A stretch of DNA of 64,000 bases from an uncultured Bacilli bacterium (GTDB lineage Bacteria > Bacillota_I > Bacilli_A > RF39 > UBA660): the NCBI GenBank assembly GCA_910579535.1, contig CAJTUR010000001.1:26587-90586 (forward strand), read 5' to 3'. Under the pieces are notes generated by a model. The model did not search any database and had not been told where the DNA came from. It saw only the letters and a program-made list of their open reading frames with translations. Within the stretch, counting starts at the first letter, position 1. Every line of letters begins with the position of its first letter. The position numbers and the translations under genes are program-made. This document shows positions 39,232 to 60,538 of this stretch, in pieces.

Positions 39232-40974
39232 ATGGAAAATACTATGACTCTAGAGGAGAGAATGGTTCGTGGGCAAGCTTTGTTCATAGGAAGAGTTTAT
39301 TTTTGTACCAATGGAAGATATTTAGTAAAAGAATTTGATGAAAAAATGGGTGAAGTATTTCAAAATTTGAAATTTGATTCTTATGAAAGTCAGTTTTTAA
39401 AAGATTCAGCGTTGTTTACTCCTACTGTTTACTTGTATGCGTTGAAAGGTCATCATTTAAGTTTTGTTGATTTTAAAGAAAATATTAAAAGTTACCGAAG
39501 AGCTTTACTTCTTGAATTGACGCATAATTTTTTTATGAAAAAAGATAAAAATGGAGAGGTCTTGTCTTGTGGATTACAAATTACGATAAATAAAAATCAA
39601 GAATTTGAAAAATATTTAGATTTAAGTCAAGTTGAATCATTTTTAAAAAAGTATCATTATTTTTGTGTGCCTCTTTTTAATACGCATTTTCCTTCTGAAT
39701 TTTTTGGGATGGGGGCCAATCAAGGGTTTATTGAATGGTTTCAATTTAGTGTTTTAAAAAATGAGGAAGAGTTAAAGTATCCAAATTTAGCAAGTGTTTT
39801 TTTTAATATTCAAAAAAATTTAGATTTTAAAGAAGAAGAGACGCTTAAAATTATGAAACGATTTGCTAATGGGAATTATGATTTTATTTTTAAACAATTA
39901 AATTTATCTAAAGAAGTGGGGATTTTATTTATTCGTTTTTTAGATTATTTTTATATAAAAGAATATGAATATGAAATTATACAGAGATATTTAGATGATA
40001 AAAAAGAAGAGCAGCGTTTGTTGGATTTAGAGCAAGGTACTAGTGTGGAACCACAATTAAAAGATATTCAATTTTTTTGTGAAAAGGTTGAAAAACAGTT
40101 TAATGACACATTTAAGAATAGATATGGAACAATTGTTAGTAAAAATGATTTTCAATTGATTTTTAATTCTATACTTTCTAAAAATAAGAATTCACTGATT
40201 CGAGATTTTTTAAATGACCTAATTAATCAAAGTTTTAAGAAAAAAGACAAGAATAAAAAATTAGAATTTAAGGACATTTCTTTAGTGAAATTATTTCAAT
40301 GTTTAGACTGGAAAGAATTTTTAATATCTATAAGTAATCAATTTGGAATGATAAAAGATGTTTTTGGAACTCAAAATGAGCAAAATGAGTTGTATAAGAT
40401 TAAAAGAATACGTCAAACAAAATTTAAAGGCTCTAAAAAATTGATAAATATGAGTTTAATTCTTTCTTATCTTGTATTTAATTTATTTATTTGTGATGAA
40501 GTAAATGAAATGAAAAATAAATATCTTGATTCAGAAACAGCAAATTTAGATGATTTCGTTTTGGAAAATATGGAAAAAAATTATCGAAAAGAAAAAGTTT
40601 CTACCTCTTTAATGGAGTTGATTACTCAGGGGAATGATTTAAATGGCTCCTATTCTTTTGATGAACTGATTTTGAAAAAAGGACAAAAGGTTTATAAGAC
40701 GAGTTATGATACAGAGCCTGTATTTTTAAATTATGATTATCAGAATGTTATTTGCGACTCTGTTAGACTTATAAAGGATGGGAAGACTATTTATAAAGGA
40801 ACAATAGAGGATATTGATGCGTTTATTGTTGCTAATCAAGAAATAAATGGAAGAATAAGGCTTAGAATGGTTACTTATGTTACGCATGATTTTATTGCTT
40901 GGTTGGATTTGGAGACGTTTCAAAATGATTGTTCTTTCTTTAATGAATCTAAACTTATCTTAAAAAAAGAGTAA
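39232..40974 (+). CDS. Hypothetical 580-aa protein, no recognisable domain
   Basis: Intact ORF with a strong RBS AAAGGAGAAAAAA; inserted between truA and the rplM promoter, where Bacillus has nothing. Confidence 0.5.
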   Translation: MENTMTLEERMVRGQALFIGRVYFCTNGRYLVKEFDEKMGEVFQNLKFDSYESQFLKDSALFTPTVYLYALKGHHLSFVDFKENIKSYRRALLLELTHNFFMKKDKNGEVLSCGLQITINKNQEFEKYLDLSQVESFLKKYHYFCVPLFNTHFPSEFFGMGANQGFIEWFQFSVLKNEEELKYPNLASVFFNIQKNLDFKEEETLKIMKRFANGNYDFIFKQLNLSKEVGILFIRFLDYFYIKEYEYEIIQRYLDDKKEEQRLLDLEQGTSVEPQLKDIQFFCEKVEKQFNDTFKNRYGTIVSKNDFQLIFNSILSKNKNSLIRDFLNDLINQSFKKKDKNKKLEFKDISLVKLFQCLDWKEFLISISNQFGMIKDVFGTQNEQNELYKIKRIRQTKFKGSKKLINMSLILSYLVFNLFICDEVNEMKNKYLDSETANLDDFVLENMEKNYRKEKVSTSLMELITQGNDLNGSYSFDELILKKGQKVYKTSYDTEPVFLNYDYQNVICDSVRLIKDGKTIYKGTIEDIDAFIVANQEINGRIRLRMVTYVTHDFIAWLDLETFQNDCSFFNESKLILKKE

Positions 40975-41576: not shown

Positions 41577-41999
41577 ATGGCTACAAAAAAACAATGTTGG
41601 TCTGCAACAGGACGTAGAAAACGTTCTAGTGCACAAGTAAGATTAACAAGTGGTACAGGAATTATTACTGTTAATGGCGTAGATGTTAATGAATATATGC
41701 CTTATCAAACACTTGTTATGGATTTAAAACAACCTTTAACTATGACAAACAATGAAAATAAATTTGATGTTGAAGTTACAGTTAAGGGCGGTGGCTTTTC
41801 AGGACAGACTGGAGCTATTCGTTTAGGTATTACTAGAGCTTTAGTCCTATTTGATGCTAATTCTGATCAATCAAGCGATGATTCTTATCGTAAAATCTTA
41901 AAAACAGCTGGATTTGTTACTAGAGATCCAAGAGTTAAAGAACGTAAAAAACCAGGTCTTAAAAAAGCACGTAGAGCACCACAATTTAGTAAACGTTAA
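41577..41999 (+). CDS. rpsI: 30S ribosomal protein S9
   Basis: [14 protein letters not shown] and C-terminal [12 protein letters not shown]. Confidence 0.95.
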
Positions 42000-42014
42000 T
42001 CTATTTTCTTTAAA

Positions 42015-42040
42015 CCTCATAATTTCTTTATGGGGTTTTT
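42015..42040 (+). terminator. Intrinsic terminator of rplM-rpsI
   Basis: CCTCATAA/TTATGGGG hairpin followed by T5. Confidence 0.6.
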
Positions 42041-42175
42041 ATTTGTAATAATCTTTAATAAATTTAAGAAATAAAAAATGATTAATTCTTAGAAATGGTT
42101 TTTTTTGAAGAATGTTTTAGATGAAGTGACCTAAATTTTATTTTTTCATAAAATATTTTGAGGAGGAAATCTAAA

Positions 42176-42220
42176 ATGGCAAAAAAAATTGTAATTGATC
42201 CAGGACATGGAGGATACTGA
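42176..42220 (+). pseudogene. 5' fragment (13 codons + stop) of a CwlC-like sporulation N-acetylmuramoyl-L-alanine amidase, cut by element insertion (attL side)
   Basis: RBS GAGGAGG then MAKKIVIDPGHGG-Y-stop. B. subtilis CwlC begins MVKIFIDPGHGGSDPGA. The reading frame resumes at 53408 with TDPGTIANGITEKD.. Confidence 0.6.
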
Positions 42221-42269
42221 AAAATCCAAAAATAAAAGAATGGCTATAAAGTAAGTAAATACAAGGAAA

Positions 42270-42300
42270 TTAAGGTACTTTGGTAGGAAAGTATCTTTTT
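42270..42300 (+). repeat. 31-bp direct repeat copy A (TTAAGGTACTTTGGTAGGAAAGTATCTTTTT), terminator-like hairpin
   Basis: Copy B at 42680-42710 differs by 1 nt; the two flank the tRNA. Confidence 0.8.
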
Positions 42301-42339
42301 TATAGAAAATAATAAAAAAATATTGTATAATACGAATAT

Positions 42340-42410
42340 GGGGATATAGTTTAATGGTAGAATAGTAATCTCCAAAATTAAAGATGTGGGTTCGATTCCC
42401 ATTATCTCCA
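42340..42410 (+). tRNA. tRNA-Trp (anticodon CCA) carried on the element
   Basis: Cloverleaf folds; GGGGATA/TATCTCC acceptor, GTTTAATGGTAGAAT D-arm, anticodon loop CTCCAAA, TGGGTTCGATTCCCA T-arm. Closely parallels B. subtilis tRNA-Trp (GTTTAACGGTAGAAC..CTCCAAA..TGGGTTCGATTCC); one G:A mismatch at the top of the anticodon stem; no encoded CCA end. Confidence 0.8.
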
Positions 42411-42679
42411 TTTTTATTAAACTAGCAATTCTCGATTCCTTGGTGTCTATAGCAACACTAGTTTTGCCTATGAGTATTTCCATTATAATTGTTATGATAA
42501 ATCTTATCATAAAGCTATTAGTTGAAAAGAAAGAGGGTACTATGATAACAATAAAAGGTGTAAACTGCAGTGTTTATGTAGGTAACCTATATGTTGGTTG
42601 TTATTGTAAAGGATAGAGTTTTGTATAGATTTGCAGTTGAGGTGTGAATCCTCTTACCTACACCATTTTTGGGTATTAA

Positions 42680-42710
42680 TTAAGGTACTTTGATAGGAAA
42701 GTATCTTTTT
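42680..42710 (+). repeat. 31-bp direct repeat copy B (TTAAGGTACTTTGATAGGAAAGTATCTTTTT)
   Basis: See copy A. Confidence 0.8.
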
Positions 42711-42744
42711 TGATGGTATAATATTTAATGATTTGGTGAAAAAT

Positions 42745-43746
42745 ATGTATTTAGATGAAGATAAAATAAAAGATTATAATTTTTTGATGTTATGTAATAA
42801 CTATATCGTTAGTATTTTGGAACGAGCTGATTTAAAAAAATGGTCTGAAGAGAAGATAGATTTCAAAGATAAGGATAAAAAGAAACTTGATTCAAATAAG
42901 TATGATATTTTCTATTTTAGAAATCATGGATATGCTACAGTAATAAATAAAAGTCTATATAAGCATATAATTTTTTCATTAATTTCTGATTATAATATCT
43001 ATGTTAAAGATGCAATTGATTGTTGTTTAAAAGGTCATTTTAGTGTAGCATATACTCTTTTAAGGAAACCATTTAAGGATGATTTGTTTATGATAGAATT
43101 ATTTTATGTTTCTGGCTATAGAATAATTTCTAAGTTTGCAAATAGTTCTATAGAAAATTTTAGAATTGAGAGTTATTCTGAAAATGAAAAGAAAAAAGTA
43201 TTAAGAAAGGTTTGTAAAAAGATAAATTTTTTTACTGCTAAAAAATTATACGACTTACGATATTCATCTAACTCATATGAAGGGTTAGAAAAATTTTGGA
43301 ATAAAGCTATACACATAGTAACGAGTAGAAAAAATTATAAAACTGAAGATGCTAATTTCAATATGATATTTTATGATGATAATGTTGTAGCTGAGCAGAT
43401 TACCTATATCTACAAAGTATTATGTTCTATTCAATTATATTTTATTGTTCTCATCTCAAACATTTTGTTAGAAGAACAATTAATAACTGAAAATGAGTAT
43501 AATTTTAATATTAACAATTTGTTTTATGCTTTTTGCATTACTTTAGACAATTATAATTTAACATCTGAACAAAAAGATTCTTTAATATATGTATGCAAAT
43601 ATTGTGGTTGCCAAAATATATTTAATCATGAACAATTTATGAATAATTATAATAAAGGAATTTTTAAGAGAAAATGCGGTAAGTGCAATAAGACTTATGA
43701 AATAAGAAAATTTGATTTCTATGATTTTAAGGATAAAGTTAATTGA
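42745..43746 (+). CDS. Hypothetical protein with a C-terminal Cys4 zinc-ribbon (CKYCGC..CGKC)
   Basis: ATG 42745 with a GGTGA RBS (the track starts at TTG 42733); no family recognised. Confidence 0.5.
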   Translation: MYLDEDKIKDYNFLMLCNNYIVSILERADLKKWSEEKIDFKDKDKKKLDSNKYDIFYFRNHGYATVINKSLYKHIIFSLISDYNIYVKDAIDCCLKGHFSVAYTLLRKPFKDDLFMIELFYVSGYRIISKFANSSIENFRIESYSENEKKKVLRKVCKKINFFTAKKLYDLRYSSNSYEGLEKFWNKAIHIVTSRKNYKTEDANFNMIFYDDNVVAEQITYIYKVLCSIQLYFIVLISNILLEEQLITENEYNFNINNLFYAFCITLDNYNLTSEQKDSLIYVCKYCGCQNIFNHEQFMNNYNKGIFKRKCGKCNKTYEIRKFDFYDFKDKVN

Positions 43747-43756
43747 AAACTATTAG

Positions 43757-43786
43757 GAGATACTTGAAGAAAGTATCTTTTATTAT
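43757..43786 (+). terminator. Hairpin AGATACTTgaagaAAGTATCT + T4 (terminator and possible oriT-type inverted repeat upstream of the relaxase gene)
   Basis: Perfect 8-bp stem; shares the AAAGTATCTTTT arm with the 31-bp repeats. Confidence 0.5.
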
Positions 43787-43816
43787 GCAAATTTAAGAAA
43801 GCGAGGAATGATATGT

Positions 43817-45097
43817 ATGAATTATGGAATATTTAGAAGTCAACCAATAATGACTATAAATGATTTAGCACAAATAGGATCACACAATAAACGAGATAAA
43901 AAAGCCTATAAAAGTAATCCAAATATTAAATTAGAATTAACTAAAAATAATATAGAATTAGTACCCTTATCAGAAAAGTATGTTAAGGGTTTTAAATTGC
44001 TTGTAAAAGATTATGAAAAAGAACACAATGAACGAATGAAAACTGAACGACCTGAAAGAAAAAAGACCTTTAATGAAATGTTAAATAAATCTAAAAGTGT
44101 TGTAGCTGATGAACTCATGTTTACTGCAACCCATAAATTCTTTGATAATATGAGTAATGATGAAATAATGAGATGGGCTGATACTTGTATGGATTTTGTT
44201 TACAACGATTTAGGTTATAAGAAAGAACAGATATTACACGCAACAATACACATGGATGAACTAACACCTCATATTCATTGTGTAGTTGTACCACTTGTTA
44301 AAAAGTTAGATAAAAGAACAAATATTGAAAGATTAACTATTTCTAAAAAGCAATATATTAGAGATAATATTCATTTATCAGAATTACAAGATATTTATAA
44401 TTTAAGATTAAGAGAAAATGGTTTCGAACTAGAACGAGGTATTAAGGGTAGTAATAGAAAACATGAAAAAGTAAAAGAGTTTAAGAAAACAACTAGATAT
44501 TATGAAGATAAGGTAACCACTATCAATAAAAGTCTTGATAATGCTATGAATGAATTTGAAGAAAAAATGAAAACTACTAAAAATACTTTAATAGATAAAG
44601 AATATGTAAAAGTACGAAAAGATACTTTTGATAGTATGAAAAATGTAATAAAAGAAACTAAAAAGATTATGGAATTTCAACCCAAAATGGAGCAATTATT
44701 TAATGAGGTAAATACTTTTAGCAAAAGTCATCAAACATTAGAAAAAGAAAATGCAAATTTACAACGAGAAGTAAAAGCACTTACTACTAGAAATCAAAAC
44801 TTAACGAAAGAGAATAACCATCTTAAAGACTATTTAAAAGCCATTTTGGAGGCAATAAAGCACTTTTTTAGGGAATTACTACAAATTGGTAATGAACCTA
44901 CAAAAGAAGTCACTACAACTGAAATAAAAGACTATTTTGATAACAACGACTTTGATATGAATGATGTTGTTGAAATATCAAGAGGAACTACCAAAGAAGA
45001 TGAATTATTTGATTATGTAAAAGCACCTAGTTATTTAAAAACTAATAAAAAAGCTTATAACAATAAAGACAAGGAGGATTATGAGTTATCTTTATAG
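43817..45097 (+). CDS. MobV-family relaxase (Mob/Pre plasmid recombination enzyme)
   Basis: N-terminal MNYGIFRSQPI..HNKRD (compare MobM MSYMVARMQKM..HNER) and the metal-binding HATIHMDELTPHIHCVVVP (MobM SVHLDESTPHMHMGVVP); long coiled-coil C-half. Confidence 0.8.
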   Translation: MNYGIFRSQPIMTINDLAQIGSHNKRDKKAYKSNPNIKLELTKNNIELVPLSEKYVKGFKLLVKDYEKEHNERMKTERPERKKTFNEMLNKSKSVVADELMFTATHKFFDNMSNDEIMRWADTCMDFVYNDLGYKKEQILHATIHMDELTPHIHCVVVPLVKKLDKRTNIERLTISKKQYIRDNIHLSELQDIYNLRLRENGFELERGIKGSNRKHEKVKEFKKTTRYYEDKVTTINKSLDNAMNEFEEKMKTTKNTLIDKEYVKVRKDTFDSMKNVIKETKKIMEFQPKMEQLFNEVNTFSKSHQTLEKENANLQREVKALTTRNQNLTKENNHLKDYLKAILEAIKHFFRELLQIGNEPTKEVTTTEIKDYFDNNDFDMNDVVEISRGTTKEDELFDYVKAPSYLKTNKKAYNNKDKEDYELSL

Positions 45098-45398
45098 CAA
45101 AACTTACAAAATCCGAAATTTGACAAGATAGTGTAAATGTGATAAAATTTAGTTGATTTTTGAAAAGGAGAGATTGTTATGTTAAAAATTAATAATATAG
45201 TTAGACAACATCATCATAATAATCTGCACTTGTTAATACGACATTAAAATTTGATCGTAGGCACAAGTGCTATTTGTGGTGCTTGTTGCCTGTATTAAAT
45301 ATAGAAATGAACTATACAGGTAAATAAAATCTGTATAGTTTTTATTTTAGGTAATTAGCATCACTTAAAAAATATTATATGAAAGAGAGATGCTAATT

Positions 45399-46874
45399 AT
45401 GGAAAGAAATATTATGATAGCTGGAAGCTATCCAACGATTATCACTAGTGGAGGAAATCCAAGAGTGAATAAAGATTTAATTGATAATATATTTTTAAGA
45501 AAATATGTATCTTTATTAGGAGAGTTATTAAAAGTAAAAGGAAATTTAAGTGATATTAAAATTGCATATATTGGTGGATATTCAAAAGAAGATAACATTA
45601 GTAGAGCAAAGCTATATATTAGTGCATATAACTATTATTTAAATTGTTTAGGATATGAATCATTAAGCAAAACCAATTTAACAGTAATTGATACTGATAA
45701 CATTGATGAGGTATCAGAAAATATTGAACAATGTGATTTATTATTTTTAGGAATTGGTGCTGATAGTAAATTTGCTAGTATTCTTTATGCATTAGAATCA
45801 AAAGGAATTAAATTTAATGAATTAATAAATAATAAAAATATACTAATTTCTTCAATTTGCTCAGGGAGTGTAATGTCAGCAGAAAGAATATATGGAGGAA
45901 AGTATGACAATTATTACTATGGGAAAGATCCATACGAATATCCTTTAAATATTAGGTCACTAAGTATTAATCCTATTACCATGGAAACCGATTTTTGTCC
46001 TAATGATGCTACACTACAAAAAAATGAAATATTTGTTGAAAACTATTTGAAACCAGATAGTAATAAATGTGTATTCTTTGCTTGCAAGCCTAATAGTTTG
46101 TTTTTAATAGGTGAAGATAAAATATATTCATATGGAGAAATGTATTTGTTTGTTGATGGTGAATGTTTACAAATTGAAAATGAACTTGAGAAAGCAGATG
46201 TAACTGAGTTAGTTGCATTGGTTAATGAGTATAATAAAGTAAAGAATAAAAGTAATATACTTAATAATGAGATGTTAACAGTCATTAAAAGTAAAGTTCA
46301 ATCATTAGTAAAAATGAAAATTGAAGTTGAACTAAAATCAGAGAAAGAAAATATTGTTAATGAATTTGTTCAAAAAGAAGTTGTAAAGGATGAACAAAAT
46401 AAAATGCGAGTAAATGAGTGGAAGCAAGCTTTAAAATCAAAATTAAATTATCTATTTAGTGAAGAAAATCTTGGAAATTTTGCAACAGACTTAGAATTAC
46501 AAGAAAGATATAAAAGATTAAATGAAAATATTGTAGAAAGCTATAATGTTGGTAGATCTAAAGATTATTTAGAAGAGTTATATTTGAAAATGAATTTAGT
46601 TAGTTTAATTAAGGTGTCTTATATTGATTATCAAGGTTACTATTCAGATTTTAAAGGTGATTTATACGATTTGCTTTGTGAATATATCTCAGTTAATAAT
46701 AGACTTGTCTATTATTCGATAGATACATGTGGTTGTTTATTTTCTAACAGAGAATTAAAGAAAATATTAAATGTTATAAAAATCGAAAATATAAAAAGAC
46801 CACAACAATTTATAAATTCTACTGAACAACAATTAAAACTTTTTAGAAGGGAGATTAAATATGAAAGAAGTTAG
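45399..46874 (+). CDS. Two-domain protein: N-terminal class I glutamine-amidotransferase-like / peptidase S51-like domain, C-terminal unknown
   Basis: Nucleophile-elbow-like SSICSGSV after a beta-strand DLLFLGIGAD; first gene of a three-gene operon overlapping the next gene by 14 nt; the track start 45390 has no RBS spacing, ATG 45399 preferred. Confidence 0.5.
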   Translation: MERNIMIAGSYPTIITSGGNPRVNKDLIDNIFLRKYVSLLGELLKVKGNLSDIKIAYIGGYSKEDNISRAKLYISAYNYYLNCLGYESLSKTNLTVIDTDNIDEVSENIEQCDLLFLGIGADSKFASILYALESKGIKFNELINNKNILISSICSGSVMSAERIYGGKYDNYYYGKDPYEYPLNIRSLSINPITMETDFCPNDATLQKNEIFVENYLKPDSNKCVFFACKPNSLFLIGEDKIYSYGEMYLFVDGECLQIENELEKADVTELVALVNEYNKVKNKSNILNNEMLTVIKSKVQSLVKMKIEVELKSEKENIVNEFVQKEVVKDEQNKMRVNEWKQALKSKLNYLFSEENLGNFATDLELQERYKRLNENIVESYNVGRSKDYLEELYLKMNLVSLIKVSYIDYQGYYSDFKGDLYDLLCEYISVNNRLVYYSIDTCGCLFSNRELKKILNVIKIENIKRPQQFINSTEQQLKLFRREIKYERS

Positions 46875-47823
46875 ATTAATAGCTCCATCAATGAGTTTAT
46901 CCGAAAACGATAAAGCCAAAATATTAAATGCTGAAAAATATTTCAAAAGTTTAGGATATTCATTAACAGTAGGAAAATACATTTTTGATAAAGATACTTA
47001 TTTTGGATGCTCTAGTATAAAAAATAGAGTTGAAGATTTAATGAATGCATTTTTAGATAAAAATGTGGAAATAATCGTGTGTGCAGATGGAGGCTATAAT
47101 GTAAATCAAATACTTCCATATCTGGATTATAAGATTATCAAACAGAATCCTAAAATAATTATTGGCTATTCTGATATTACAGCATTATTAATTGCAATTA
47201 TGAAGAAAACAAATTTAACTACATACTATGGACCGATGTTAAGTGGTTTTAGTTCTGATAATGAATATACTCTACAATATTTTGAGAAAATATTAAAAAA
47301 TAAGGATTTTATGATTCATTCATCAAAGGTAATATATGACTATAAAAAAGTAAATAATAAAATGGAAAAAGCTACTTTAAAAAATGATGGTATGATACCA
47401 ATCCAAAATGGTGAATCTTTTGGAAAAATTATTGGTGGTAATTTATGCACTATCAACTTATTGCAAGGCACAGAATATATGCCCAATTTAAATGATAGTA
47501 TATTGTTTCTTGAAGATGATGCTGATGATTTTGGAAATGATGTATTTTTATTAGAATTTGATAGAAACTTAGAATCATTATTACAATTACCTAATTGCAA
47601 AATAAAAGGAATTGTTTTTGGCAGATTCCAGTTATGTAGTAATATGACTATTGATAAGTTAAAAACTATCATTAAAAATAAGAAAAAGTTAAAAGATGTT
47701 CCGATTGTATGTGGAGCTGATTTTGGACATACAAATCCAATGTTTACAATTCCAATAGGTGCATATTGTAACTTGCAGATAAAGAATAATGATATAGAAA
47801 TAAAAATAGAAATGGGGAAATGA
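46861..47823 (+). CDS. Peptidase S66 LD-carboxypeptidase / MccF-like (microcin C7 self-immunity peptidase family)
   Basis: IAPSMSL N-terminus, GYSDITALL (nucleophilic Ser in GxSD), later GHT motif (ADFGHTNP), the S66 Ser-His-Glu architecture. Confidence 0.75.
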   Translation: MKEVRLIAPSMSLSENDKAKILNAEKYFKSLGYSLTVGKYIFDKDTYFGCSSIKNRVEDLMNAFLDKNVEIIVCADGGYNVNQILPYLDYKIIKQNPKIIIGYSDITALLIAIMKKTNLTTYYGPMLSGFSSDNEYTLQYFEKILKNKDFMIHSSKVIYDYKKVNNKMEKATLKNDGMIPIQNGESFGKIIGGNLCTINLLQGTEYMPNLNDSILFLEDDADDFGNDVFLLEFDRNLESLLQLPNCKIKGIVFGRFQLCSNMTIDKLKTIIKNKKKLKDVPIVCGADFGHTNPMFTIPIGAYCNLQIKNNDIEIKIEMGK

Positions 47824-47824
47824 T

Positions 47825-49114
47825 ATGAAAATTCAAAATGTAAAAGGTGGCTATGATTTTTTACCTAAAGAACAAAGAATCAGAAATTATATAAATGATA
47901 CATTAAGAAAAATTTTTGAAGAGTATGGATATAATCCAATTGAAACTCCACTACTATGTTACTATGACATTTTAAGTGATAAGTATGATGAGGATAATGA
48001 TATATTAAATGAGATTTATAAATTAAGTGATCAAGGGGAAAGACAATTAGGATTAAGATACGATCTAACTGTACCTTTTGCAAAATTTATTGCATTAAAT
48101 AAAAATAAAATAAATATACCATTTAAACGCTATGAAATAGCAAAGGCTTTTAGAGATGGACCTATTAAGGTTGGAAGGGATAGAGAATTTACGCAATGTG
48201 ATGTTGATGTTGTTGGTTTATCTGGGCAAATGATAGAAGCTGAATTGATGACCTTATTTACTAGAGCATTTAAAGAATTAGGCATTGATATTATTATCAA
48301 ATATAATAGTAGAAATTTGATGAATGGTTTGATTCTAGAATGTGGTGTTGATGAAAATTTAGTTTCGCTAGTTACTACCAATATTGATAAGTTGGAAAAA
48401 ATAAGTAAAGATGAATTTAAAAATAATTTACTTAATATTGGATTAAAAACACAACAAATCGACTTACTTTTAGAGTATTTTAGCTTATCCTTATGTGAAT
48501 TAAATAATAAGTTTGAAACTACCAAAAATGAAAAAATTATTTTGGGATTAGATGAATTAAATCAATTAACAAGTTATTTAGAAGCACTAAATATTAATGA
48601 TTTATGCATATTTGCATCATCATTAGCAAGAGGACAAAATTATTATACAGGTAATGTATTTGAAGTATATGAAAAAAATGGAAAAATAACTTGTAGTATA
48701 GGTGCAGGTGGAAGATATGATAAAATGATTACTAATTTTATTGGTGATGGTAATGAATATCCAACAGTAGGAATAAGTTTTGGCTTATCATCAATTTATG
48801 AATTACTAAAAGATAAAGAAATGTTTGAAAATGAATCTAATGTAGACATTTATATAATTCCGATGGAAACAAATCTTGAAAGTTTAAAATTAGCAAATAA
48901 TTTAAGAGATTTAGGGTACAAAGTTGAAATACAAATGCAGAATAAAAAATTAAAGAAAAGTCTAGACTATGCTAATAGAGAAAATATTCCTTATGTAATT
49001 ATATTAGGAGAAGATGAATTATCTAAAGGAGAGATTGTTATTAAAAGTATGTTGAATAATAATGATATTGAGTTATCATTAAATGATTTAGAAAAAATAA
49101 AACAATTTATTTAA
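47825..49114 (+). CDS. hisS: Histidyl-tRNA synthetase, element-borne second copy (full length with anticodon-binding domain)
   Basis: KGGYDFLP N-terminus, class II motif 2 RYEIAKAFRDGPIKVGRDREFTQCDVDVVG, motif 3 GAGGRYDKM, C-terminal class II anticodon-binding domain; 429 aa. Confidence 0.85.
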   Translation: MKIQNVKGGYDFLPKEQRIRNYINDTLRKIFEEYGYNPIETPLLCYYDILSDKYDEDNDILNEIYKLSDQGERQLGLRYDLTVPFAKFIALNKNKINIPFKRYEIAKAFRDGPIKVGRDREFTQCDVDVVGLSGQMIEAELMTLFTRAFKELGIDIIIKYNSRNLMNGLILECGVDENLVSLVTTNIDKLEKISKDEFKNNLLNIGLKTQQIDLLLEYFSLSLCELNNKFETTKNEKIILGLDELNQLTSYLEALNINDLCIFASSLARGQNYYTGNVFEVYEKNGKITCSIGAGGRYDKMITNFIGDGNEYPTVGISFGLSSIYELLKDKEMFENESNVDIYIIPMETNLESLKLANNLRDLGYKVEIQMQNKKLKKSLDYANRENIPYVIILGEDELSKGEIVIKSMLNNNDIELSLNDLEKIKQFI

Positions 49115-49123
49115 TACTATGGA

Positions 49124-49171
49124 AAGCCGAAATCCAAAAGAAACTTCGTAACTAATGGATTTCGGTTTTAA
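49124..49171 (+). terminator. Terminator of the HisRS operon
   Basis: AAGCCGAAATCC/GGATTTCGGTTT stem followed by T4. Confidence 0.5.
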
Positions 49172-49434
49172 CTAACTTTTAGACAAGTTAGTAACACACT
49201 ACGATATTGGCAAGCCAATAACGATGTGTGCCAAGGGAATTTTCCCTTTGGAAACCCTAGAAGCAACTTATATTGCAAAGTTTCACAATGTAATATAGTT
49301 GCCTTTTTATTTCACTATCGCTACATAAAAAGAAAAAGATTATCGCTGCGTTCATTTGCTAAAGCAAACAAAACGCACCCCACCTTTTTATAAAAAAAAT
49401 AGTCTAATCGCTAATCTTACGAAAAGCGAAAAGA

Positions 49435-49881
49435 CTATTTTTTCTTATTGTATGTTTTCTCTAATAATCTTGCAGTATCTCTTTTGGCTACATATATAGC
49501 TAAGTAAGTTATAAGTTCATAAGTAATCATTACTACAAAGAAGATTATGATTACTATTGAATTATTTGTTAATCCCTTTTTTACATAATCTATAAATTGT
49601 ATTGTTAGATATATTATTCCAAAAACTACTGTTGATATAGTTGTTGAATCATCAAAAGATCGTTGTATCACTCTCGATTCTTCTTTATCAGCATTTAACC
49701 CTCTTACACTCCATCTACCTATTACCATTAACACCAATACCATTAGAAATGGAGTAATAACCCAATACAAATTATAGCCATAATCATTTTTCTGAAATAA
49801 AACTAATACTAAGCTTACTACCATAAAAATATTTAATAATATGATTCCAATATTTCTTATTATAATTTTACTTTTTTGCAT
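49435..49881 (-). CDS. Hypothetical 4-TM membrane protein co-transcribed with the XRE regulator
   Basis: Hydrophobic segments; overlaps the XRE gene by 14 nt. Confidence 0.5.
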   Translation of the reverse strand: MQKSKIIIRNIGIILLNIFMVVSLVLVLFQKNDYGYNLYWVITPFLMVLVLMVIGRWSVRGLNADKEESRVIQRSFDDSTTISTVVFGIIYLTIQFIDYVKKGLTNNSIVIIIFFVVMITYELITYLAIYVAKRDTARLLEKTYNKKK

Positions 49882-50371
49882 TTTTGTTTCTCTCCTTTAC
49901 TTTTAAACTTTGAATCAAAATAATAATTTCTTTAGAAGTATTGATTTGATATTCAGTATCTTCTATTGTATGTAGCAGTAATTCTCTTTCGCTTTCCAAT
50001 ATGTTTTTATTTTCTAAATTTTCTCTACAAGCATTAACAAGCTTTGTTGAATTTTCAATACTACCTAAAACATTGATTTCAGCCTCATTTAATTCATCTA
50101 ACTTCATTTTTTCATAATAAGCTTTGATAAATGGATTTAAAGAACTAACTTCCATGCCTAAACCTATTTTATACATCATCTCGTTATAATTAACATTTAT
50201 AAACTTACTTATCTTTCTTAATGTTTTAGGATTAGGTACTTCTCTTTCTCCTGATTCAATTTTAGATAATTCAGCATTACTAATGTTTGCTTCTTTAGCA
50301 AGTTGTCTTTGTGAGTAACCTGCTTTTTCTCGTGCTTCAGCGATTATTTCGCCGATTTTTTTTTCTTGCAT
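49868..50371 (-). CDS. XRE-family HTH transcriptional regulator (CI/ImmR-like), start at ATG 50371
   Basis: HTH GYSQRQLAKEANISNAELSKIESGER; RBS GAGGTG 7 nt upstream of 50371. Confidence 0.75.
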   Translation of the reverse strand: MQEKKIGEIIAEAREKAGYSQRQLAKEANISNAELSKIESGEREVPNPKTLRKISKFINVNYNEMMYKIGLGMEVSSLNPFIKAYYEKMKLDELNEAEINVLGSIENSTKLVNACRENLENKNILESERELLLHTIEDTEYQINTSKEIIILIQSLKVKERNKNAKK

Positions 50372-50386
50372 TGTAATACACCTCAC

Positions 50387-50549
50387 AAATACATAATAGC
50401 ATATATGTTAACTAAAATCAACAAAATAAATAAAATTGTTTCTAAAAGTGTTGACAATATAGTAATTATCATGTAGTATAGTATGTGTTTCCAAACATTA
50501 ACATTAAATCAAAAATGTTAACAAGTAAGAGAAAGGAGGAAAACTATGA
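50387..50549. promoter_or_regulatory. Divergent promoter/operator region with repeated ATGTTAAC half-sites
   Basis: TTGACA, 17 nt, TAGTAT promoter toward 50550; ATGTTAAC / GTTAATG / ATGTTAAC motifs at about 50405, 50498 and 50516. Confidence 0.4.
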
Positions 50550-50813
50550 ATGAATAAAAGACATCAAGGAATTCCAACAAAGATTTTAAAAGATAAGAGA
50601 ATCAAGCCTGAGGGGAAGTTAATATATTCTTATATATATTCTAAAGGGCAAGATAGGATTATCACAGATCTAAATGTTGGAGAATTACAACAAGTAGTGA
50701 AGATAAATAATCAAGGACTTAGAAAAAACCTTGAAAGATTGGAACAATCAAAGTATCTAATCTATAAAGAATATGATGTAGGAATGTACACAATAAATCT
50801 ACTAGGTTGTTAA
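50550..50813 (+). CDS. Small winged-helix DNA-binding protein (paralogous to 51027 and 57731 proteins)
   Basis: Shared pattern K(x)L..(x)KL(I/L)YSY..S..(I/T)..(L)..L..S...(I)...L..L...(Y)(L/I) with the other two. Confidence 0.5.
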   Translation: MNKRHQGIPTKILKDKRIKPEGKLIYSYIYSKGQDRIITDLNVGELQQVVKINNQGLRKNLERLEQSKYLIYKEYDVGMYTINLLGC

Positions 50814-51026
50814 ATAACTCCTAGTAGATATGGTACAGTAAGATATAAGGCTTATGTTAGTACCTTTTCTATAAAGATAGAATAAACTTCATTTAATCCG
50901 AGAGACAGGATTTAAAATAAAGTCTTAGGGATAACTTTGCCTATTTTATAGGTAAAAGAAAAGCCTATTATTATCATTTTAAATTTAAGGAGAATAATTA
51001 TTTTAAAGTTAGATTGTGAATTTATC

Positions 51027-51482
51027 ATGACTCCACGAATATTATTTAGAGATAAGAAATTATCAAGAACTGAAAATGATGTTTTAAGTCTTATCATATC
51101 ACTTGCCTTAAATAAAGAGTATTGTTATGCTACGAATGATTATCTAAAAGAGTATATAAATTCATCTGATAGAACGATAAATTATTCATTGTCTAAATTA
51201 AAGAAACTTTGCTATATTATAGTAAAACATGAAAGTAGCAAAAGAAGAATATATCTTAATACAGAAAAGATACCAACAAAAGTTGCAGATGAGGGTGCAG
51301 AAAATTGCAGTAATGAGAGTGCAAACAGTTGCACCCATAATATAAATAATAATAAATATAAAAAGAATAAAAGAAATGAAATTATTCCTGAATGGATGAA
51401 ACATCCAGAAATGTGTGTTTCTATTCCATTAAGTGAAGAAGAACAAAAAGAAATGGATGAACTAATGAAAGATTATAAATGA
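51027..51482 (+). CDS. Winged-helix (HTH_36 / replisome-organiser-like) DNA-binding protein
   Basis: N-terminal wHTH region similar to 57731-58024; acidic C-terminus. Confidence 0.5.
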   Translation: MTPRILFRDKKLSRTENDVLSLIISLALNKEYCYATNDYLKEYINSSDRTINYSLSKLKKLCYIIVKHESSKRRIYLNTEKIPTKVADEGAENCSNESANSCTHNINNNKYKKNKRNEIIPEWMKHPEMCVSIPLSEEEQKEMDELMKDYK

Positions 51483-51752
51483 GAGGAGAGATGTGTATGA
51501 TTGGAGGATTTAGTTTATAGAATATGAAAAAAGGGGGAAGTAAGAAAATGGAGGTAGTATATAATGTAAAATATAAATTTAAGACAAATGAAAATCGAAC
51601 TAAGGATGAAATAAAAAGTATATTTAATAACAAATTATTAAATGTCATAATGATTTTAGAAAATCATGAGTTAGCATTTAAAGAATCCTAAATATGAGAT
51701 ATAATATACTTGTATTTACAAATATTTATAGCTGTTCTCATACGTTGGAGGA

Positions 51753-53360
51753 ATGGCTATGATAGAAAAGGTAGGTGTATATTGTAGATTATCTGATGAA
51801 GATAGAGATAAGTTAAATAAAAATGATGATAGTGATAGTATAGTAAATCAAAGAAGTATGTGTTTAAAATATGCTAATCAAAATGGATGGAATGTTGTAG
51901 ATATTTATTCAGATGATGACTTTTCAGGAGCAGGAACTTATAGACCTGACTTTGAAAGGCTTATCAAAGATTGCGAAAGTGGAAAAATAAATTTAGTTTT
52001 ATGTAAAAGTCAATCAAGATTTTCAAGAGATATGGAAGTTATTGAAAGATATTTGCACAATAAGTTTATTGAGTGGGGAGTAAGATTTGTAAGTATTGTT
52101 GATAATGCTGATACAAGTATTGAATCTAACAAGAAATCAAGACAAATAAATGGACTTATCAATGAATGGTATTTAGATGATTTATCAACAAATATTAAAA
52201 AGTCTTTAAAGAATAAACGAGAAGATGGCTTATTTATGGGAAGTTTTGCTCCTTATGGTTATGATAGAAGTGAAGAAGATAAACACAAATTAGTTGTTGA
52301 TCCTGTGGCTGCTGAAGTTGTTAAAAAGATATTTCAAATGTATGCAGAGGGAAATGGCTATCATAAAATATGTGAATATCTAAATAACAATAATATTCCA
52401 CCAAGATCGGTATATAAGAAACAAAAAGGTAGTAAGTTTGTATGTTCTAATTGTGATTATAAAAATGTAAGATGGAATCCTGATACAATAGCTCAAATGC
52501 TTAGAAATGAATTTTATATTGGTAATCTAGTACAAGGTAAAATAACTTCTATGGGGTATAAAGTTCATAAGTTTAAGAAAGTTGCAGAAAAAGATTGGTG
52601 CAGAATAGAAAATTCACACGAGCCAATTATTGATATGGAAACTTGGAACAAAGTACAAAAGATACTTGGTACACATTTAAGTCCTACTAAAACTGGAGAG
52701 ATACACTATTTAAGTAGAAAAGTTTATTGTATGGAATGCGATAAGGTTTTTATGAGAAATGTGTATAGTGTAAAAGGAGAAAAGACAGGAAAAAGAGCAT
52801 ATTTACAATGCAAAGGTGCTAAAAAATATCACACTTGCGATAATAACAAAGCAATTAGAATGGATGAATTAGAAACTATACTACTTAATGCAATTAATGA
52901 TTTACTAGATAATTACTACGATCAAAATAATTTACAAGAACTCTATAACAAAAGAAATCAACAAGACACAAGTAATTGTGAAATAATAAAAGTTTTAGAA
53001 AAAGAAAAGTATAACCTCAATAAAAAGATAGATGATAATAAAACCTTTTATAGAAATCTTTATGAAGATAAGGTAAAAGGAACTATTACAGAAGATATGT
53101 TTAGTATAATGTCTAGCGATTATTTAAGAGAGATAGAATCGATGACAAAAAGAGTTGAAACGATTGATAACGAGATAAATAACCTACAAGTTGTTAAAGA
53201 AGAACGAAAACAAGCTGATGAAATACTAAAGAAATATAAGCATATTAAAGAATTAAATAAAGTAATAGTTGATGAATTTATTGATAAGGTTTATGTTGGT
53301 GTTTATGATAAAGAAACGAAAACACGAGATATTGAAATAGAATGGAACTTAGAATTTTAA
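51753..53360 (+). CDS. Large serine recombinase (integrase/excisionase for the element)
   Basis: N-terminal resolvase catalytic domain VGVYCRLSDEDRD..SRFSRD, recombinase domain, zinc-ribbon CSNCDYK..CMECD, C-terminal coiled coil; 535 aa; adjacent to the right junction. Confidence 0.9.
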   Translation: MAMIEKVGVYCRLSDEDRDKLNKNDDSDSIVNQRSMCLKYANQNGWNVVDIYSDDDFSGAGTYRPDFERLIKDCESGKINLVLCKSQSRFSRDMEVIERYLHNKFIEWGVRFVSIVDNADTSIESNKKSRQINGLINEWYLDDLSTNIKKSLKNKREDGLFMGSFAPYGYDRSEEDKHKLVVDPVAAEVVKKIFQMYAEGNGYHKICEYLNNNNIPPRSVYKKQKGSKFVCSNCDYKNVRWNPDTIAQMLRNEFYIGNLVQGKITSMGYKVHKFKKVAEKDWCRIENSHEPIIDMETWNKVQKILGTHLSPTKTGEIHYLSRKVYCMECDKVFMRNVYSVKGEKTGKRAYLQCKGAKKYHTCDNNKAIRMDELETILLNAINDLLDNYYDQNNLQELYNKRNQQDTSNCEIIKVLEKEKYNLNKKIDDNKTFYRNLYEDKVKGTITEDMFSIMSSDYLREIESMTKRVETIDNEINNLQVVKEERKQADEILKKYKHIKELNKVIVDEFIDKVYVGVYDKETKTRDIEIEWNLEF

Positions 53361-53407
53361 GATAAAAGATGATAATTTGGACTTTTCCGATTCCTGCACA
53401 TGGAGGA

Positions 53408-53668
53408 ACTGATCCTGGAACTATTGCGAATGGAATAACAGAGAAAGATTATACTTTAAAAATAAGTCAATATATGCATGAAAGGTTAAATGATTTGGGT
53501 ATTGAAAATCGTATGACTCGTACAAATGATGAAACCTTGTCTCCAAGTGTGAGACCAGATAGAGCACAAAGTTTTTTTGGAAAGGGTAATGATGTGATTT
53601 TAGTATCTAATCACATAAATGCAGGAGGTGGCGACACATATTTTGTGATTAAAAGTAATTGTGTATAA
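53408..53668 (+). pseudogene. 3' continuation (attR side) of the CwlC-like amidase, itself truncated after about 99 aa of the catalytic domain
   Basis: TDPGTIANGITEKDYTLKIS..MTRTNDE..VILVSNHINAGGGDTYF matches the Amidase_3 catalytic domain (CwlC SDPGATGNGLQEKTLTLQIA..FLSIHVNSGGGTGFESY); stops at 53668 with the C-terminal half missing. ORF-track 53369 start MIIWTFPIPAHGG is element-derived read-through. Confidence 0.6.
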
Positions 53669-54183
53669 TTGTTCATAAGCTTCCTGAAATTATACAACTA
53701 TAGACAAAAGTAAATTAAAAAGGTAGATTTTAGAGTTGAAAAATACAATAATACTATAAAAACTAAATATCTTAACAAATAAATACGATGTTCATGTAAA
53801 AGTATAGGATTTTTTATGATTATGATCATAAAGATTATAATCATAAGTTAAAAGATAAAATTTATATTAATTTGTCACGAAAAATGCTATTTGAGTGTAC
53901 ATACCAAAGCAATCGATGTTAATATGATTCAATCGGGGTCAGAGGGAAATTATTTTACACTGTTTGACTATAATTGAAATAAAAAATATTTGTGTAGCAT
54001 TATATACAACATGCGCAGAATGTGGTATATTAAAGCAAATCGTGTCGTTTGGTATTGCTGACAAGATATCATACACCAATCTAGAGTAGCTTTTTACTCA
54101 TAGCAGATAGATGTTTTTCGATAATATAGTATTTTTAGTGTGAAAGTTAAGACACAGATTATAATGGAGAGGAGATTTTAAAA

Positions 54184-56127
54184 TTGAAGAATAATATTTT
54201 TGAAAATATGGAATTCCTCGGGTCACTTTCAAAAAAGTTTGATGGACAAGAACAGATTATGGAATCTCTCCATTTAGCAGCGAAGCAACTAGAACTTTCC
54301 GGTATTGCAAAATATGCTAATTTAGCTACTGCCATGTCATCTAAGCAGATTGGAGCTATTGGTTCTGCCTATCTTAGCGGTGCATTTCAATTTGAAAAAA
54401 AATTAGCTCAAAAATTACATGATATTTATGCCCCGCTAGAAAAGGCGTTTGACAATATTGCCACAGTTGAAAATCTGTTAGGCATGCACTTTAAAGAACT
54501 TGTGCAACCATCATTTTATTTGCCAGATATAAGTGGAATCCTTGCTACAGTGAATAGTTGTTCATCGGCATTATCAAGGTCGGCATCAGTACTAGATACA
54601 TCTTGGGTGCAACAAGTGAATCCATGGCTAACGGATGTTTCGCGTTTTAATACTATGGATACTAGTGCACTTATAGGCATGAATACAGAATTTTCAAAGC
54701 TTATTAAATTAGAACAAGAAACATCTGGTCTTGCATTAATTGCTGAGAGTTTTTCAAAAATTACGAGTGCGTCAGCTCAATTGGCTTCTATAGAAAATTT
54801 GCTTTCTGGTCTTGCAGAACAATGGCGTGATGTAATTGTTCCGCTCCGATTTTTAGATGATTATGGTAACTTTGCGTTACGACAATATACTTTGATTCAA
54901 AAAGCAGCCAGTGAAAATGATGATAAGTCAGTTGAATGGCGTTTAGATTTGTTAGATGCCACTTCCAAATTTGTTGATAGACAAATTACATGGGCAAGTG
55001 ACTTTTCAGTGGACATTCAAGAGGATATTGATTCCAAGAATTTACCTGTTATTGAAAATGAATTAGATATTGCATTAATTCCTCAGTACATTGGATATTC
55101 TAAACGTGATGCTAAGGTAGTTGAGAAAGCTCTTGTAGAATCAGATATTTCAATCATTACAGAAAAAGGTAAGTTAATTGTCAACAAGGCTCGACTAATT
55201 AAAAAAATTTGCAAAGTAAATAATAGAGAATTGCTTTTTGAAAATACAGATTTTTATGTTGGAAGTTATATAACACTCGCAGGGACTTTCTGCAGGAATA
55301 CAGATTCTCTTAAAAGTGTAGTAGATGCTTTATATCATTTGTTATTTTCTCAAAAAGAAGTACTTTCTGTATTTATAGATTTAGATGATTTTGAATGCAT
55401 AGAACTAATCAGTAATCTGAAAGATAAGGAACTATATCCAGAGCAATCTAAGGAAATATCAGATTTACAAAATAGAGTGTATGATTACTTTCTCAACTTG
55501 GAAGATGCTATTATTGAAAAAATTGAAATTGATTCATCGTTTGGTCAGTCAACAGTTTCAGCTACTACAATGTTGTCCGAAGATAACTGGACTGAAGAAA
55601 CAGTGAGTAAAAATATCTTAAAAGCATTACTCAAGGTACAAGGTAACAAAACTTTTTATGGAAAAAAAGAGGATGAATTAAACGATTGCATTAGAGATAC
55701 TCTTAGCATGGTCTATGAGATGAAAGATCAATCCAGACAAGGAGTCTCTCCTAGTGGAAAAGATGCTGGTGAAGTGGATTTACAAATATGTAGAGATGGA
55801 TTTCCTATTGCTATAATAGAAGGTTTAAAAGTTAATTCTTTAGATCGGAACTACATACAGAACCATATTGACAAAGTTCTTACATGTTATGACCCCTTTG
55901 GTTGTCCATATAGTTATGTAGTAATTTATGTAACAGTTAAGAAGTTTGAAGATTTTTGGGTAAACTGTCTAAACTATATACGAGATGAATATAGTTTTCC
56001 CTATACAATAAAAAAAGAAATCCAAGAACTAAATCATATGTATTCATCTTCGAGACATGCTAAAATAGTGTTATTACGTGATGGCAGAGAAGTATCAGTT
56101 CATTTTTATGCATTATCAGTACAGTAA
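54184..56127 (+). CDS. Hypothetical 647-aa protein, GC-richer than the genome, C-terminal PD-(D/E)xK-like nuclease motif
   Basis: TTG start with GGAGAGGAG RBS; Ala/Ser/Leu-rich helical N-region; GEVDLQICRDGFPIAIIEGLKV resembles a D...ExK nuclease core; first gene of the second island. Confidence 0.5.
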   Translation: MKNNIFENMEFLGSLSKKFDGQEQIMESLHLAAKQLELSGIAKYANLATAMSSKQIGAIGSAYLSGAFQFEKKLAQKLHDIYAPLEKAFDNIATVENLLGMHFKELVQPSFYLPDISGILATVNSCSSALSRSASVLDTSWVQQVNPWLTDVSRFNTMDTSALIGMNTEFSKLIKLEQETSGLALIAESFSKITSASAQLASIENLLSGLAEQWRDVIVPLRFLDDYGNFALRQYTLIQKAASENDDKSVEWRLDLLDATSKFVDRQITWASDFSVDIQEDIDSKNLPVIENELDIALIPQYIGYSKRDAKVVEKALVESDISIITEKGKLIVNKARLIKKICKVNNRELLFENTDFYVGSYITLAGTFCRNTDSLKSVVDALYHLLFSQKEVLSVFIDLDDFECIELISNLKDKELYPEQSKEISDLQNRVYDYFLNLEDAIIEKIEIDSSFGQSTVSATTMLSEDNWTEETVSKNILKALLKVQGNKTFYGKKEDELNDCIRDTLSMVYEMKDQSRQGVSPSGKDAGEVDLQICRDGFPIAIIEGLKVNSLDRNYIQNHIDKVLTCYDPFGCPYSYVVIYVTVKKFEDFWVNCLNYIRDEYSFPYTIKKEIQELNHMYSSSRHAKIVLLRDGREVSVHFYALSVQ

Positions 56128-56225
56128 CTATAGTAAGCTATTACATTTAGAGGTAATATAAACGTTAGGTATGAATATTAGAGTAGTATTTTACAAGCCA
56201 TCATTAATATAATAGCTTAATATTC

Positions 56226-56477
56226 TTGAAATATATATCTGATTCTTTTGAAGAAAGACACAAAGTGCTCGTTGATGAAAGAATTGCCCTAGACGAAGAG
56301 AAAGATAGTTATACTGAGAGGAATATATTTTATGTTCTTAAGAATACTAGATGGAATTATCTAGTAGAATATTCTAAAGATGAAAATGTTGGTGTGATTA
56401 TTGATGATGCTCTCACTCTGATTGAGAAAGACAATTCATCATTTAAGAATGTGAGAAATTTGATAATTTCAATTTAA
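56226..56477 (+). CDS. Hypothetical small protein (TTG start), weak call
   Basis: 83-aa ORF only; no RBS or homology support. Confidence 0.25.
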   Translation: MKYISDSFEERHKVLVDERIALDEEKDSYTERNIFYVLKNTRWNYLVEYSKDENVGVIIDDALTLIEKDNSSFKNVRNLIISI

Positions 56478-56853
56478 GCATCTATGATATAGTGTAAGTA
56501 GTAAATGAAAGGAAAAAACTATTTATGTACTATAATTATAATTTGTTTATGCAAAGTTTAGATAATTTAGTAAACAATTAGAAAAAAGTAACAATGAAAG
56601 TGATAAAAAGATTCTAGATACTTTAAAGAAAACTATTGATGCTTTAAAGTCAGTTTCTGAGCTAAATCAAAATGAAACTCAAGCATTTTTAAATCTATTA
56701 TCATTCTCTGTAGGTAGTTCTGTAGTTTTAACTAATAATCAGCAATAAAGGTATTTGAATTGATACCTTTTTTTGCAGTTAAAATAGCTTTAGAATAGTG
56801 ATTATTTGCACAAAATTTGATATAATAGATATAACAAAAAAGGAGGCAATTCT

Positions 56854-60535: not shown

Positions 60536-60538
60536 TTC

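Follow-up and report, generated by a model that had tools for sequence, protein, structure and literature searches.

Why is the amidase gene that follows rpsI in an uncultured Bacilli bacterium interrupted by an element with its own recombinase: is the insertion removed during sporulation like the skin element, or does it lie in a gene in which mobile DNA is tolerated? In the 64-kb stretch of contig CAJTUR010000001.1 analyzed here at full length (the window, to which all coordinates refer), the first 13 codons of an Amidase_3 gene are parted from the next ones by 11,193 bp of foreign DNA (element 1; one core copy counted), which encodes a large serine recombinase. The original prediction had seen in this a cwlC-like sporulation amidase gene at the cwlD location, split by a possible skin-like intervening element. 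From the evidence given below, element 1 is probably a site-specific integrative mobilizable element (IME) residing in a tolerated, late-acting amidase gene, with its excision under its own control and not under that of the sporulation programme. From the skin-like proposal, the intragenic serine-recombinase element stands, and its target was found to have a sigmaK-type promoter; sporulation-timed excision found no support.

The start of the amidase gene lies, as had been proposed, behind a strong ribosome-binding site (RBS) downstream of the rpsI terminator (Table 1), and its reading frame resumes at the right end of element 1. The fused 89 amino acids (aa) correspond to positions 1–79 of 174 of the Pfam family Amidase_3 (E 1.5e-20). 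The 10-mer ACATGGAGGA is present in exactly two copies in the 64 kb, one at each junction; since these copies are 11,193 bp apart, i.e., a multiple of three, the reading frame is identical on both sides, and removal of 42215–53407 in silico brings codons 1–89 in frame again. If the element ends are joined, a 48-bp imperfect palindrome results, with 24-bp arms, 18 of 24 inverted-repeat matches and its axis between C53399 and A53400; this degree of dyad symmetry was reached by 0 of 2000 shuffles. Such attP-type anatomy argues that the core repeat is no chance match and that the junctions are no assembly chimera. A further interruption of the amidase gene is found at 53634/53635, following HINAGGGD, where another island (island 2) begins. 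The original prediction had asked whether the rest of the gene lies past a second island; the C-terminal half is absent from the window, island 2 running off its end. Due to the two breaks, excision of element 1 alone cannot rebuild the amidase, which is predicted to be inactive in the chromosome as sequenced.

Uninterrupted counterparts were retrieved by a genome scan with one genome per species, yielding 80 loci from metagenome-assembled genomes of uncultured gut 'Bacilli/Tenericutes' (including Mycoplasma sp. CAG:776, Candidatus (Ca.) Ventrenecus, Caccenecus and Onthocola); L-numbers denote loci of these relatives, P-numbers homologous proteins or pieces from other samples. In many relatives the homologue is a single protein of 390–460 aa (e.g., 454 aa in L019, 10001–11362), composed of an N-terminal Amidase_3 domain devoid of a signal peptide and 4–5 subsequent LysM repeats. 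Both window pieces align to such single intact genes, and the alignment of 42136–42214 to promoter and 5' end of the relatives' LysM amidase includes 40 bp upstream of the start. The empty site for which the original prediction had asked therefore exists: of 80 copies, 33 are uninterrupted at the two sites. These proportions are unbiased since they derive from the genome scan and not from the protein homologue listing. The latter gave the impression that almost all homologues are truncated, a search artefact, as the listing was confined to proteins no longer than about 1.7-fold the query length (≤145 aa for an 89-aa query, ≤261 aa for a 149-aa query); a short query lists fragments only, and its hit-length distribution is not readable as biology. 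Comparison of the full-length amidase with PDB sequences yielded generic LysM and Amidase_3 matches only.

The split gene is not cwlD. In the closest relatives (L009, L011, L013, L020 and L028) the genes are arranged as rplM-rpsI-cwlD-(333 aa)-Abi-HtrA-...-LysM amidase, with cwlD as a separate gene directly after rpsI for a protein of about 218 aa with a hydrophobic N-terminus, and their LysM amidase following 5–7 kb past cwlD. Synteny, domain architecture and the missing hydrophobic N-terminus exclude cwlD; moreover, the full-length homologue scores only 65.8 bits against TIGR02883 (spore_cwlD; cut-off 221.55). In the window, the block from cwlD to HtrA is missing between rpsI and the amidase (41999–42176), nor do the 64 kb contain a gene for any of its proteins. 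The block is either deleted or relocated, and its absence makes the amidase start adjoin rpsI. Orthology to CwlC is likewise ruled out by the LysM tail. CwlC, the mother-cell lysis amidase of B. subtilis, is sigmaK-dependent and has an N-terminal Amidase_3 domain without signal peptide and a C-terminal SPOR domain. Judged by sequence and motif, the split gene resembles it in the first of these domains and in the type of its promoter, but carries 4–5 LysM repeats in place of SPOR. The likeness to CwlC pointed out originally for the N-terminus does not extend to the C-terminus. As a separate observation, the ATG of cwlD in several relatives (L009, L011, L020, L050 and others) directly follows (G)CATAtAgTTtAAT, and a Shine-Dalgarno sequence is missing, which would fit transcripts without a leader that start from a sporulation promoter of the CATA type.

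The promoter of the amidase conforms to AC-N16/17-CATAnnnTA, the consensus of sigmaK in Bacillus and Clostridium, to which that of sigmaE is alike. On both strands of the window, AC-N16/17-CATANNNTA is matched twice, by the amidase promoter and at 15277 within the ORF 15011–17476. Among 68 species compared, CATAnnnTA is found 4–7 nt upstream of the RBS in 62, with AC a further 16–17 nt upstream in 50; the -10 motif occurs in 6.2 % of 887 control ORFs (70 nt upstream of each). An alternative sigmaA promoter (GTGACC-17-TAAAAT, 9/12 in a sigma-70 scan) is disfavoured, since the G position of TTGACA is filled in only 7 of 62 sequences, whereas hardly any variation is seen for the C at -17 (60 of 62) and, within CATAnnnTA, for the first CA and the last A. 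In B. subtilis, cwlC is expressed specifically in the mother cell and late. The conserved sigmaK-type promoter leads us to predict the same timing and compartment for the amidase considered here. The host is equipped with sporulation genes, as had been stated: YabP, YabG and SpoVG score above the NCBIfam cut-offs and YabQ just below. Upstream of yabP (37276) a sigmaE-like GCATAAT-N13-CATATTCT is present.

Table 1 Features of the split amidase locus in the 64-kb window
Feature	Position	Strand	Basis or remark
rpsI ORF	41577-41999	+	ORF list
Terminator-like hairpin of rpsI, then T run	42012-42038	+	Sequence scan
SigmaK-type promoter of the amidase: AC 42129-42130, 16-nt spacer, CATAAAATA 42147-42155	42129-42155	+	Consensus match
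RBS GAGGAGG (42160-42166) and amidase codons 1-13 (42176-42214, ATG 42176; MAKKIVIDPGHGG)	42160-42214	+	Next in frame TAC TGA
attL core ACATGGAGGA, site 1, GHGG codons	42205-42214	.	10-mer match
Element 1, IME, 11,193 bp	42215-53407	+	att cores, domains
tRNA-Trp, anticodon CCA, left end of element 1	42339-42411	+	ARAGORN
337-aa ORF, four Cys near C-terminus	42733-43746	+	No Pfam, NCBIfam, PADLOC or PHROGs match
MobV-family relaxase (Mob_Pre), coiled-coil C-terminus	43808-45097	+	PF01076, E 4.4e-29
Three-gene cargo, ORFs overlapping or abutting: 494-aa protein, S66 LD-carboxypeptidase (MccF/LdcA family), histidine-tRNA ligase	45390-49114	+	Peptidase_S66 and S66C; hisS
Divergent unit: 148-aa membrane protein (49435-49881), XRE/HTH_3 repressor-like protein (49868-50386)	49435-50386	-	Domain searches
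Module before recombinase: 87-aa protein, HTH_36 replication-initiator-like protein (51027-51482), ~50-55-aa ORF (51524-51691)	50550-51691	+	Gene order in relatives
Large serine recombinase, 535 aa, TndX-like	51753-53360	+	Resolvase, Recombinase, Zn_ribbon_recom, DUF4368
attR core ACATGGAGGA; putative crossover dinucleotide CA 53399-53400	53398-53407	.	Dyad axis of reconstructed attP
Amidase codons 14-89, middle piece, intact ORF (TDPGTIANGITEKD...)	53408-53634	+	Same frame resumed; P0001 of other samples is 98 % identical
Island 2, left part, site 2 after HINAGGGD: 647-aa protein, HsdM_N fragment, Fic (PDC-S72), HTH_36, MazE-like protein, hsdM, hsdS (type I restriction-modification)	53635-64000, running off window	+	Domain and defence searches

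The recombinase is the only one inside element 1, and its gene ends 37 bp short of the right core, in agreement with the arrangement described originally. It matches PF00239 (E 1.8e-24), PF07508 (E 4.7e-27), PF13408 (E 4.8e-9) and the PHROGs integrase phrog_95 (E 5e-109); look-up of the exact protein led to a single 1.6-kb contig, which provides no context. The relaxase and the tRNA corroborate that the element is mobilizable and tRNA-bearing. Phage structural genes were not found in element 1 by a PHROGs scan, and its other 10 ORFs gave no match to conjugation proteins in Pfam, NCBIfam and PHROGs. Judged by this gene content, element 1 appears to be a non-phage IME with its own relaxase and without genes for type IV secretion or coupling. 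A sigma-70-like site (42303–42331) is located directly upstream of the tRNA gene. The cargo hisS belongs to the equivalog TIGR00442 (347.5 bits, cut-off 286.75), and this hisS paralogue forms a tight unit with the MccF/LdcA-like S66 peptidase and the 494-aa protein, alongside tRNA-Trp; one may speculate that the cargo could serve as a cassette for immunity to an aminoacyl-nucleotide antibiotic. The 337- and 494-aa cargo proteins, like the 647-aa protein of island 2 and a 580-aa protein encoded outside the two islands, had no PADLOC, PHROGs or NCBIfam match.

Expression of the recombinase would be governed by a module of its own. In the window, the 87-aa gene is preceded by a promoter of the type TTGACA-N17-TATAGT, and TATAAT-like as well as TTGACA-N17-TATACT-like promoters are found upstream of recombinase modules. 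In contrast, a sigmaE/sigmaK motif, which the original prediction had advised to look for upstream of the recombinase, is lacking: consensus-motif testing showed no conserved CATA-type motif in front of recombinases or small ORFs in the site-1 and the site-2 clade (element 1 and 14 site-2 recombinases), sigmaA-like promoters and the divergent XRE repressor being present instead. The gene order of the module and a homologous small ORF recur in L007, L025 and L063, and a small ORF immediately upstream of the recombinase is also found in L058 and L075. Overall, an ORF of about 30–55 aa directly precedes the recombinases of both clades, and that of the window (51524–51691) may be a directionality factor. 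A micro-ORF of 7–10 codons with a strong RBS precedes the ~50-aa ORF (MIGGFSL* in the window within 51440–51753; also in L007, L025, L058 and L063). In site-2 islands, the analogous ORF of 30–45 aa has the motif TFKDLILKYLIEEI.

The amidase gene is a recurrent landing pad. Besides the 33 copies intact at sites 1 and 2, the 80 comprise 31 with an insertion at site 2 alone, 5 with one at site 1 alone, 6 with insertions at both (window included) and 3 undetermined copies. The coding sequence is cut after GHGG at site 1, after NAGG(G)(D) at site 2 and in a LysM repeat at site 3. Site 1 is occupied in the window and in L006, L007, L025, L049, L053, L057, L058, L063, L075 and L084; wherever sequence upstream of the junction exists, a recombinase of the window clade is located just upstream. 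Such recombinases (59–93 % identical) directly precede the GHGG junction in L007, L025, L063, L075 and L029, with one gene between in L058. The case of L029 (1–985) differs in its target: the C-terminal part of a recombinase 93 % identical to that of the window lies right at the GHGG codons of cwlD proper, yielding a hybrid ORF MIIWTFPIPAHGG-VDPG... in which the hydrophobic N-terminus of CwlD is lost. In L053 (1–1774), two near-identical amidase N-halves (synonymous divergence dS 0.045) lie 1.2 kb apart with different site-2 arms, only the second having its own promoter.

Site 2 is occupied in about 37 of the 80 copies, with at least 8 families of element arms at NAGGGD, to one of which the attL arm of island 2 belongs. 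The site-2 recombinases are 48–85 % identical among themselves and 31 % identical to the window enzyme. Islands with both ends in reach measure 5.5–8.7 kb. The cargo of site-2 islands comprises type I and other restriction-modification (R-M) systems, Fic, AbiEi, methylases and an AAA protein beside an S8 peptidase. In L022 and L044 the two arms repeat each other in inverted orientation, ACACAATGACCATC of L022 being the reverse complement of GATAGTCATTGTGT at 13 of 14 positions. Site 3 (..SGD|T..) is cut in L014, L025, L058, L029, P0145, P0188 and P0237, with a third recombinase clade (about 36 % identity) encoded downstream in L014 and L025; in detail, coding breaks after ..(S/K)GD and continues with (T/R)(I/V/M)F.., mostly ..FMGNN(E/G)... 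Each insertion site has its own recombinase clade. The DNA of islands with the same arms is 75–98 % identical between species, and at least 85 % in 10 of 12 pairs with substantial alignments, as compared to 70–85 % for the host flanks, indicating that the islands are recent horizontal arrivals. A close relative of element 1 is found in L087, the DNA of which is 90 % identical to the window over 49092–53634, the match ending exactly at 53634: despite the shared recombinase module, L087 has other cargo and another site-2 island.

In the favoured reading, the TndX-like recombinase would have joined its palindromic attP of about 50 bp to an attB formed by the D-P-G-H-G-G codons of the Amidase_3/LysM gene. 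The crossover is predicted at the CA of the His codon and would part the sigmaK-type promoter, RBS and 13 codons from the rest of the gene. A second, different island (type I R-M, Fic) would have entered 75 codons downstream at the NAGGGD hot spot. Excision by the same recombinase, perhaps helped by the ~50-aa ORF, would release a circle and restore the codons exactly, with the restored 42204|53408 codons and the circular junction ...TTCCGATTCCTGCACATGGAGGATACTGAAAAATCC... as expected products, and the MobV relaxase would allow the element to ride the conjugation pore of a helper. Control would reside in the element's own repressor-controlled sigmaA-type module instead of the sporulation programme. 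The gene may tolerate insertion because its product acts only late in the mother cell, and could accordingly serve as safe harbour for three recombinase clades at three motifs across this clade of uncultured gut Bacilli.

Several observations weigh against this reading. Neither a circular form nor the attP junction or the restored attB of this strain was found; scanning of JGI metagenomes with one degenerate pattern for attP, restored attB, attL and attR returned only two distant attB-type amidase genes, and the circular form and restored junction that the original prediction had proposed to look for did not turn up. As no excision product was found, we infer excision and have not seen it. Furthermore, the target gene is under purifying selection (ratio of nonsynonymous to synonymous substitution rates, dN/dS, ~0.32) with split copies no more relaxed than intact ones, and all examined pieces are intact ORFs, the C-halves reaching the natural stop. 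Intact pieces and purifying selection fit less well with simple dispensability of the gene and leave room for programmed reconstitution, even if dN/dS is a weak test of pseudogenisation because the islands arrived recently. Finally, all promoter calls are consensus-motif matches in the AT-rich genome of an uncultured organism.

The foremost alternative is a skin-like process, in which element 1, island 2 and their kin would be excised in the mother cell and the amidase rebuilt before its sigmaK promoter fires, with the forespore keeping the islands. It is regarded here as possible but rather unlikely. The textbook promoter of the target, kept in most species, speaks in its favour, as do the CwlC-like N-terminus and the yabP, yabG and spoVG genes of the host. 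The same applies to the insertions passing through catalytic motifs with every piece still an intact ORF, to the equal dN/dS of split and intact copies, and to the convergence of three recombinase clades on one gene, one of them also entering the true cwlD of L029. Moreover, there are precedents: skin (sigK, SpoIVCA), SPbeta (spsM, SprA/SprB), gin (gerE, GirC/GirX), vfbin, vrin and yin share with element 1 the intragenic position of a serine-recombinase element and a spore-forming host as well as, by prediction for the amidase, a target promoter of the mother-cell type (PMC4191935, PMC5595907, PMC5025042, PMC10747680). As in these, precise excision would rebuild the ORF, a small ORF lies beside the recombinase and, like gin, element 1 is non-phage. 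The 30–55-aa ORFs before the recombinases are similar in size to GirX (42 aa), which is required together with the recombinase GirC for gerE rearrangement (PMC5595907).

However, unlike in skin, SPbeta and gin, no sporulation-type promoter was found before any recombinase or small ORF of either clade, up to three elements occupy one gene, and the islands are mobilizable and have spread between species; developmental excision is a candidate here. With its TndX-like recombinase, element 1 has an enzyme of a type for which excision without directionality factor is reported (PMC5704250). Two or three independent excisions would be required per mother cell, and the excision product has not been found. 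The recency and turnover of the islands can explain the intact pieces; the different cargo and site-2 neighbour of the close relative in L087 are adverse or neutral to this alternative.

Insertion could also preserve function, if an element-borne start at ATG 53369 (MIIWTFPIPAHGG...) yielded an amidase from the recombinase transcript. The ORF 53369–53668 indeed begins in the element arm and mimics a hydrophobic strand plus xHGG, and similar hybrid starts exist in L007 and L025. Yet no Shine-Dalgarno sequence precedes 53369, the start is not conserved (none in L063 and L075), and the hybrid in L029 would strip CwlD of its membrane anchor. For the window itself this reading is excluded, since island 2 makes the hybrid ORF stop at 99 aa with the loss of half of the catalytic domain, and in general it is highly improbable. 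Equally hard to credit are the concern raised originally that the amidase pieces are unrelated, the right one being an element-encoded lysin, and the possibility that the locus is an assembly chimera: Amidase_3 genes are common in mobile elements and the attL junction is known from this window only, but promoter plus 13 codons and middle piece both find their counterpart in one and the same gene of relatives, five further samples contain the attR junction, the homology to L087 spans recombinase module and middle piece up to the site-2 junction, and an attL arm that is the inverted repeat of the attR arm is not expected of a chimera.

Two neighbouring features deserve mention. Island 2 looks composite from its gene order: an 83-aa HsdM_N fragment (56226–56477) and an HTH_36 gene (57704–58024), not followed by a recombinase, precede the complete MazE-like/hsdM/hsdS set; the recombinase of island 2 is not within the window. 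The 580-aa ORF (39232–40974) between truA and rplM is also without a Pfam match and without a homologue in any of the retrieved loci, and seems to be an insertion specific to this lineage, within a conserved neighbourhood of ribosomal-protein genes.

With respect to known systems, element 1 is closest in gene make-up to IMEs of the Tn4451/Tn4453 type, which likewise combine a large serine recombinase with a MobV (Mob_Pre) relaxase, lack a conjugation pore, measure about 6–13 kb and have very short identical end sequences. Tn4451 differs in its low target specificity and its catP, as compared to one amidase coding motif and to tRNA-Trp, hisS, S66 peptidase and the repressor/HTH_36/small-ORF module in element 1. 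Tn4451 employs serine recombinase and MobV relaxase with no directionality factor needed, and site-specific serine-recombinase IMEs of Firmicutes are known to integrate inside genes and to disrupt them (PMC5704250). Among named enzymes, TndX of Tn5397 comes closest to the recombinase (33 % identity over 99 % of its length, shared C-terminal DUF4368); Tn5397 is a conjugative transposon, and this degree of identity indicates a family-level relation only. A further parallel is offered by the staphylococcal cassette chromosome (SCC), i.e., cargo-variable islands with large serine recombinases (Ccr), which integrate at one site at the 3' end of rlmH/orfX and leave the gene intact. CcrB is the top NCBIfam match of the window recombinase, far below cut-off. 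Common to both systems is the piling up of cargo-variable serine-recombinase islands at one conserved gene; in the amidase, by contrast, the coding region is entered at three sites, and the recombinase clade differs from site to site.

Intervening elements are known for sigK, spsM, spoVFB, spoVR, gerE and yabG, almost all in cultured Bacillus and Clostridium, and an amidase as target did not turn up in the literature searched. New at this locus are the amidase target, the hot spot of three sites and three recombinase clades occupied in more than half of the clade's species, and the cargo. The machinery matches that of known Tn4451-type serine-recombinase IMEs, and there is a substantial chance of a new variant of intervening element. 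We tentatively entertain, as the less likely outcome, that the late mother-cell amidase is a clade-wide multi-site dock, with up to three serine-recombinase elements per gene, all removed in the mother cell, and the islands inherited by the spore. If so, this would be the first case of regulated gene integrity with multiple elements at multiple sites, and the first with intervening elements actively mobilizable between species. The locus is a clean candidate in little-known gut Bacilli, in which alleles with and without insertions exist by the dozen. Should developmental excision not take place, it would still represent a clade-wide safe-harbour gene for the exchange between species of defence functions (type I R-M, Fic, Abi, methylases) and of unusual cargo (hisS, tRNA-Trp, MccF-like peptidase), and it provides sets of serine recombinases together with their defined attB and attP sites.

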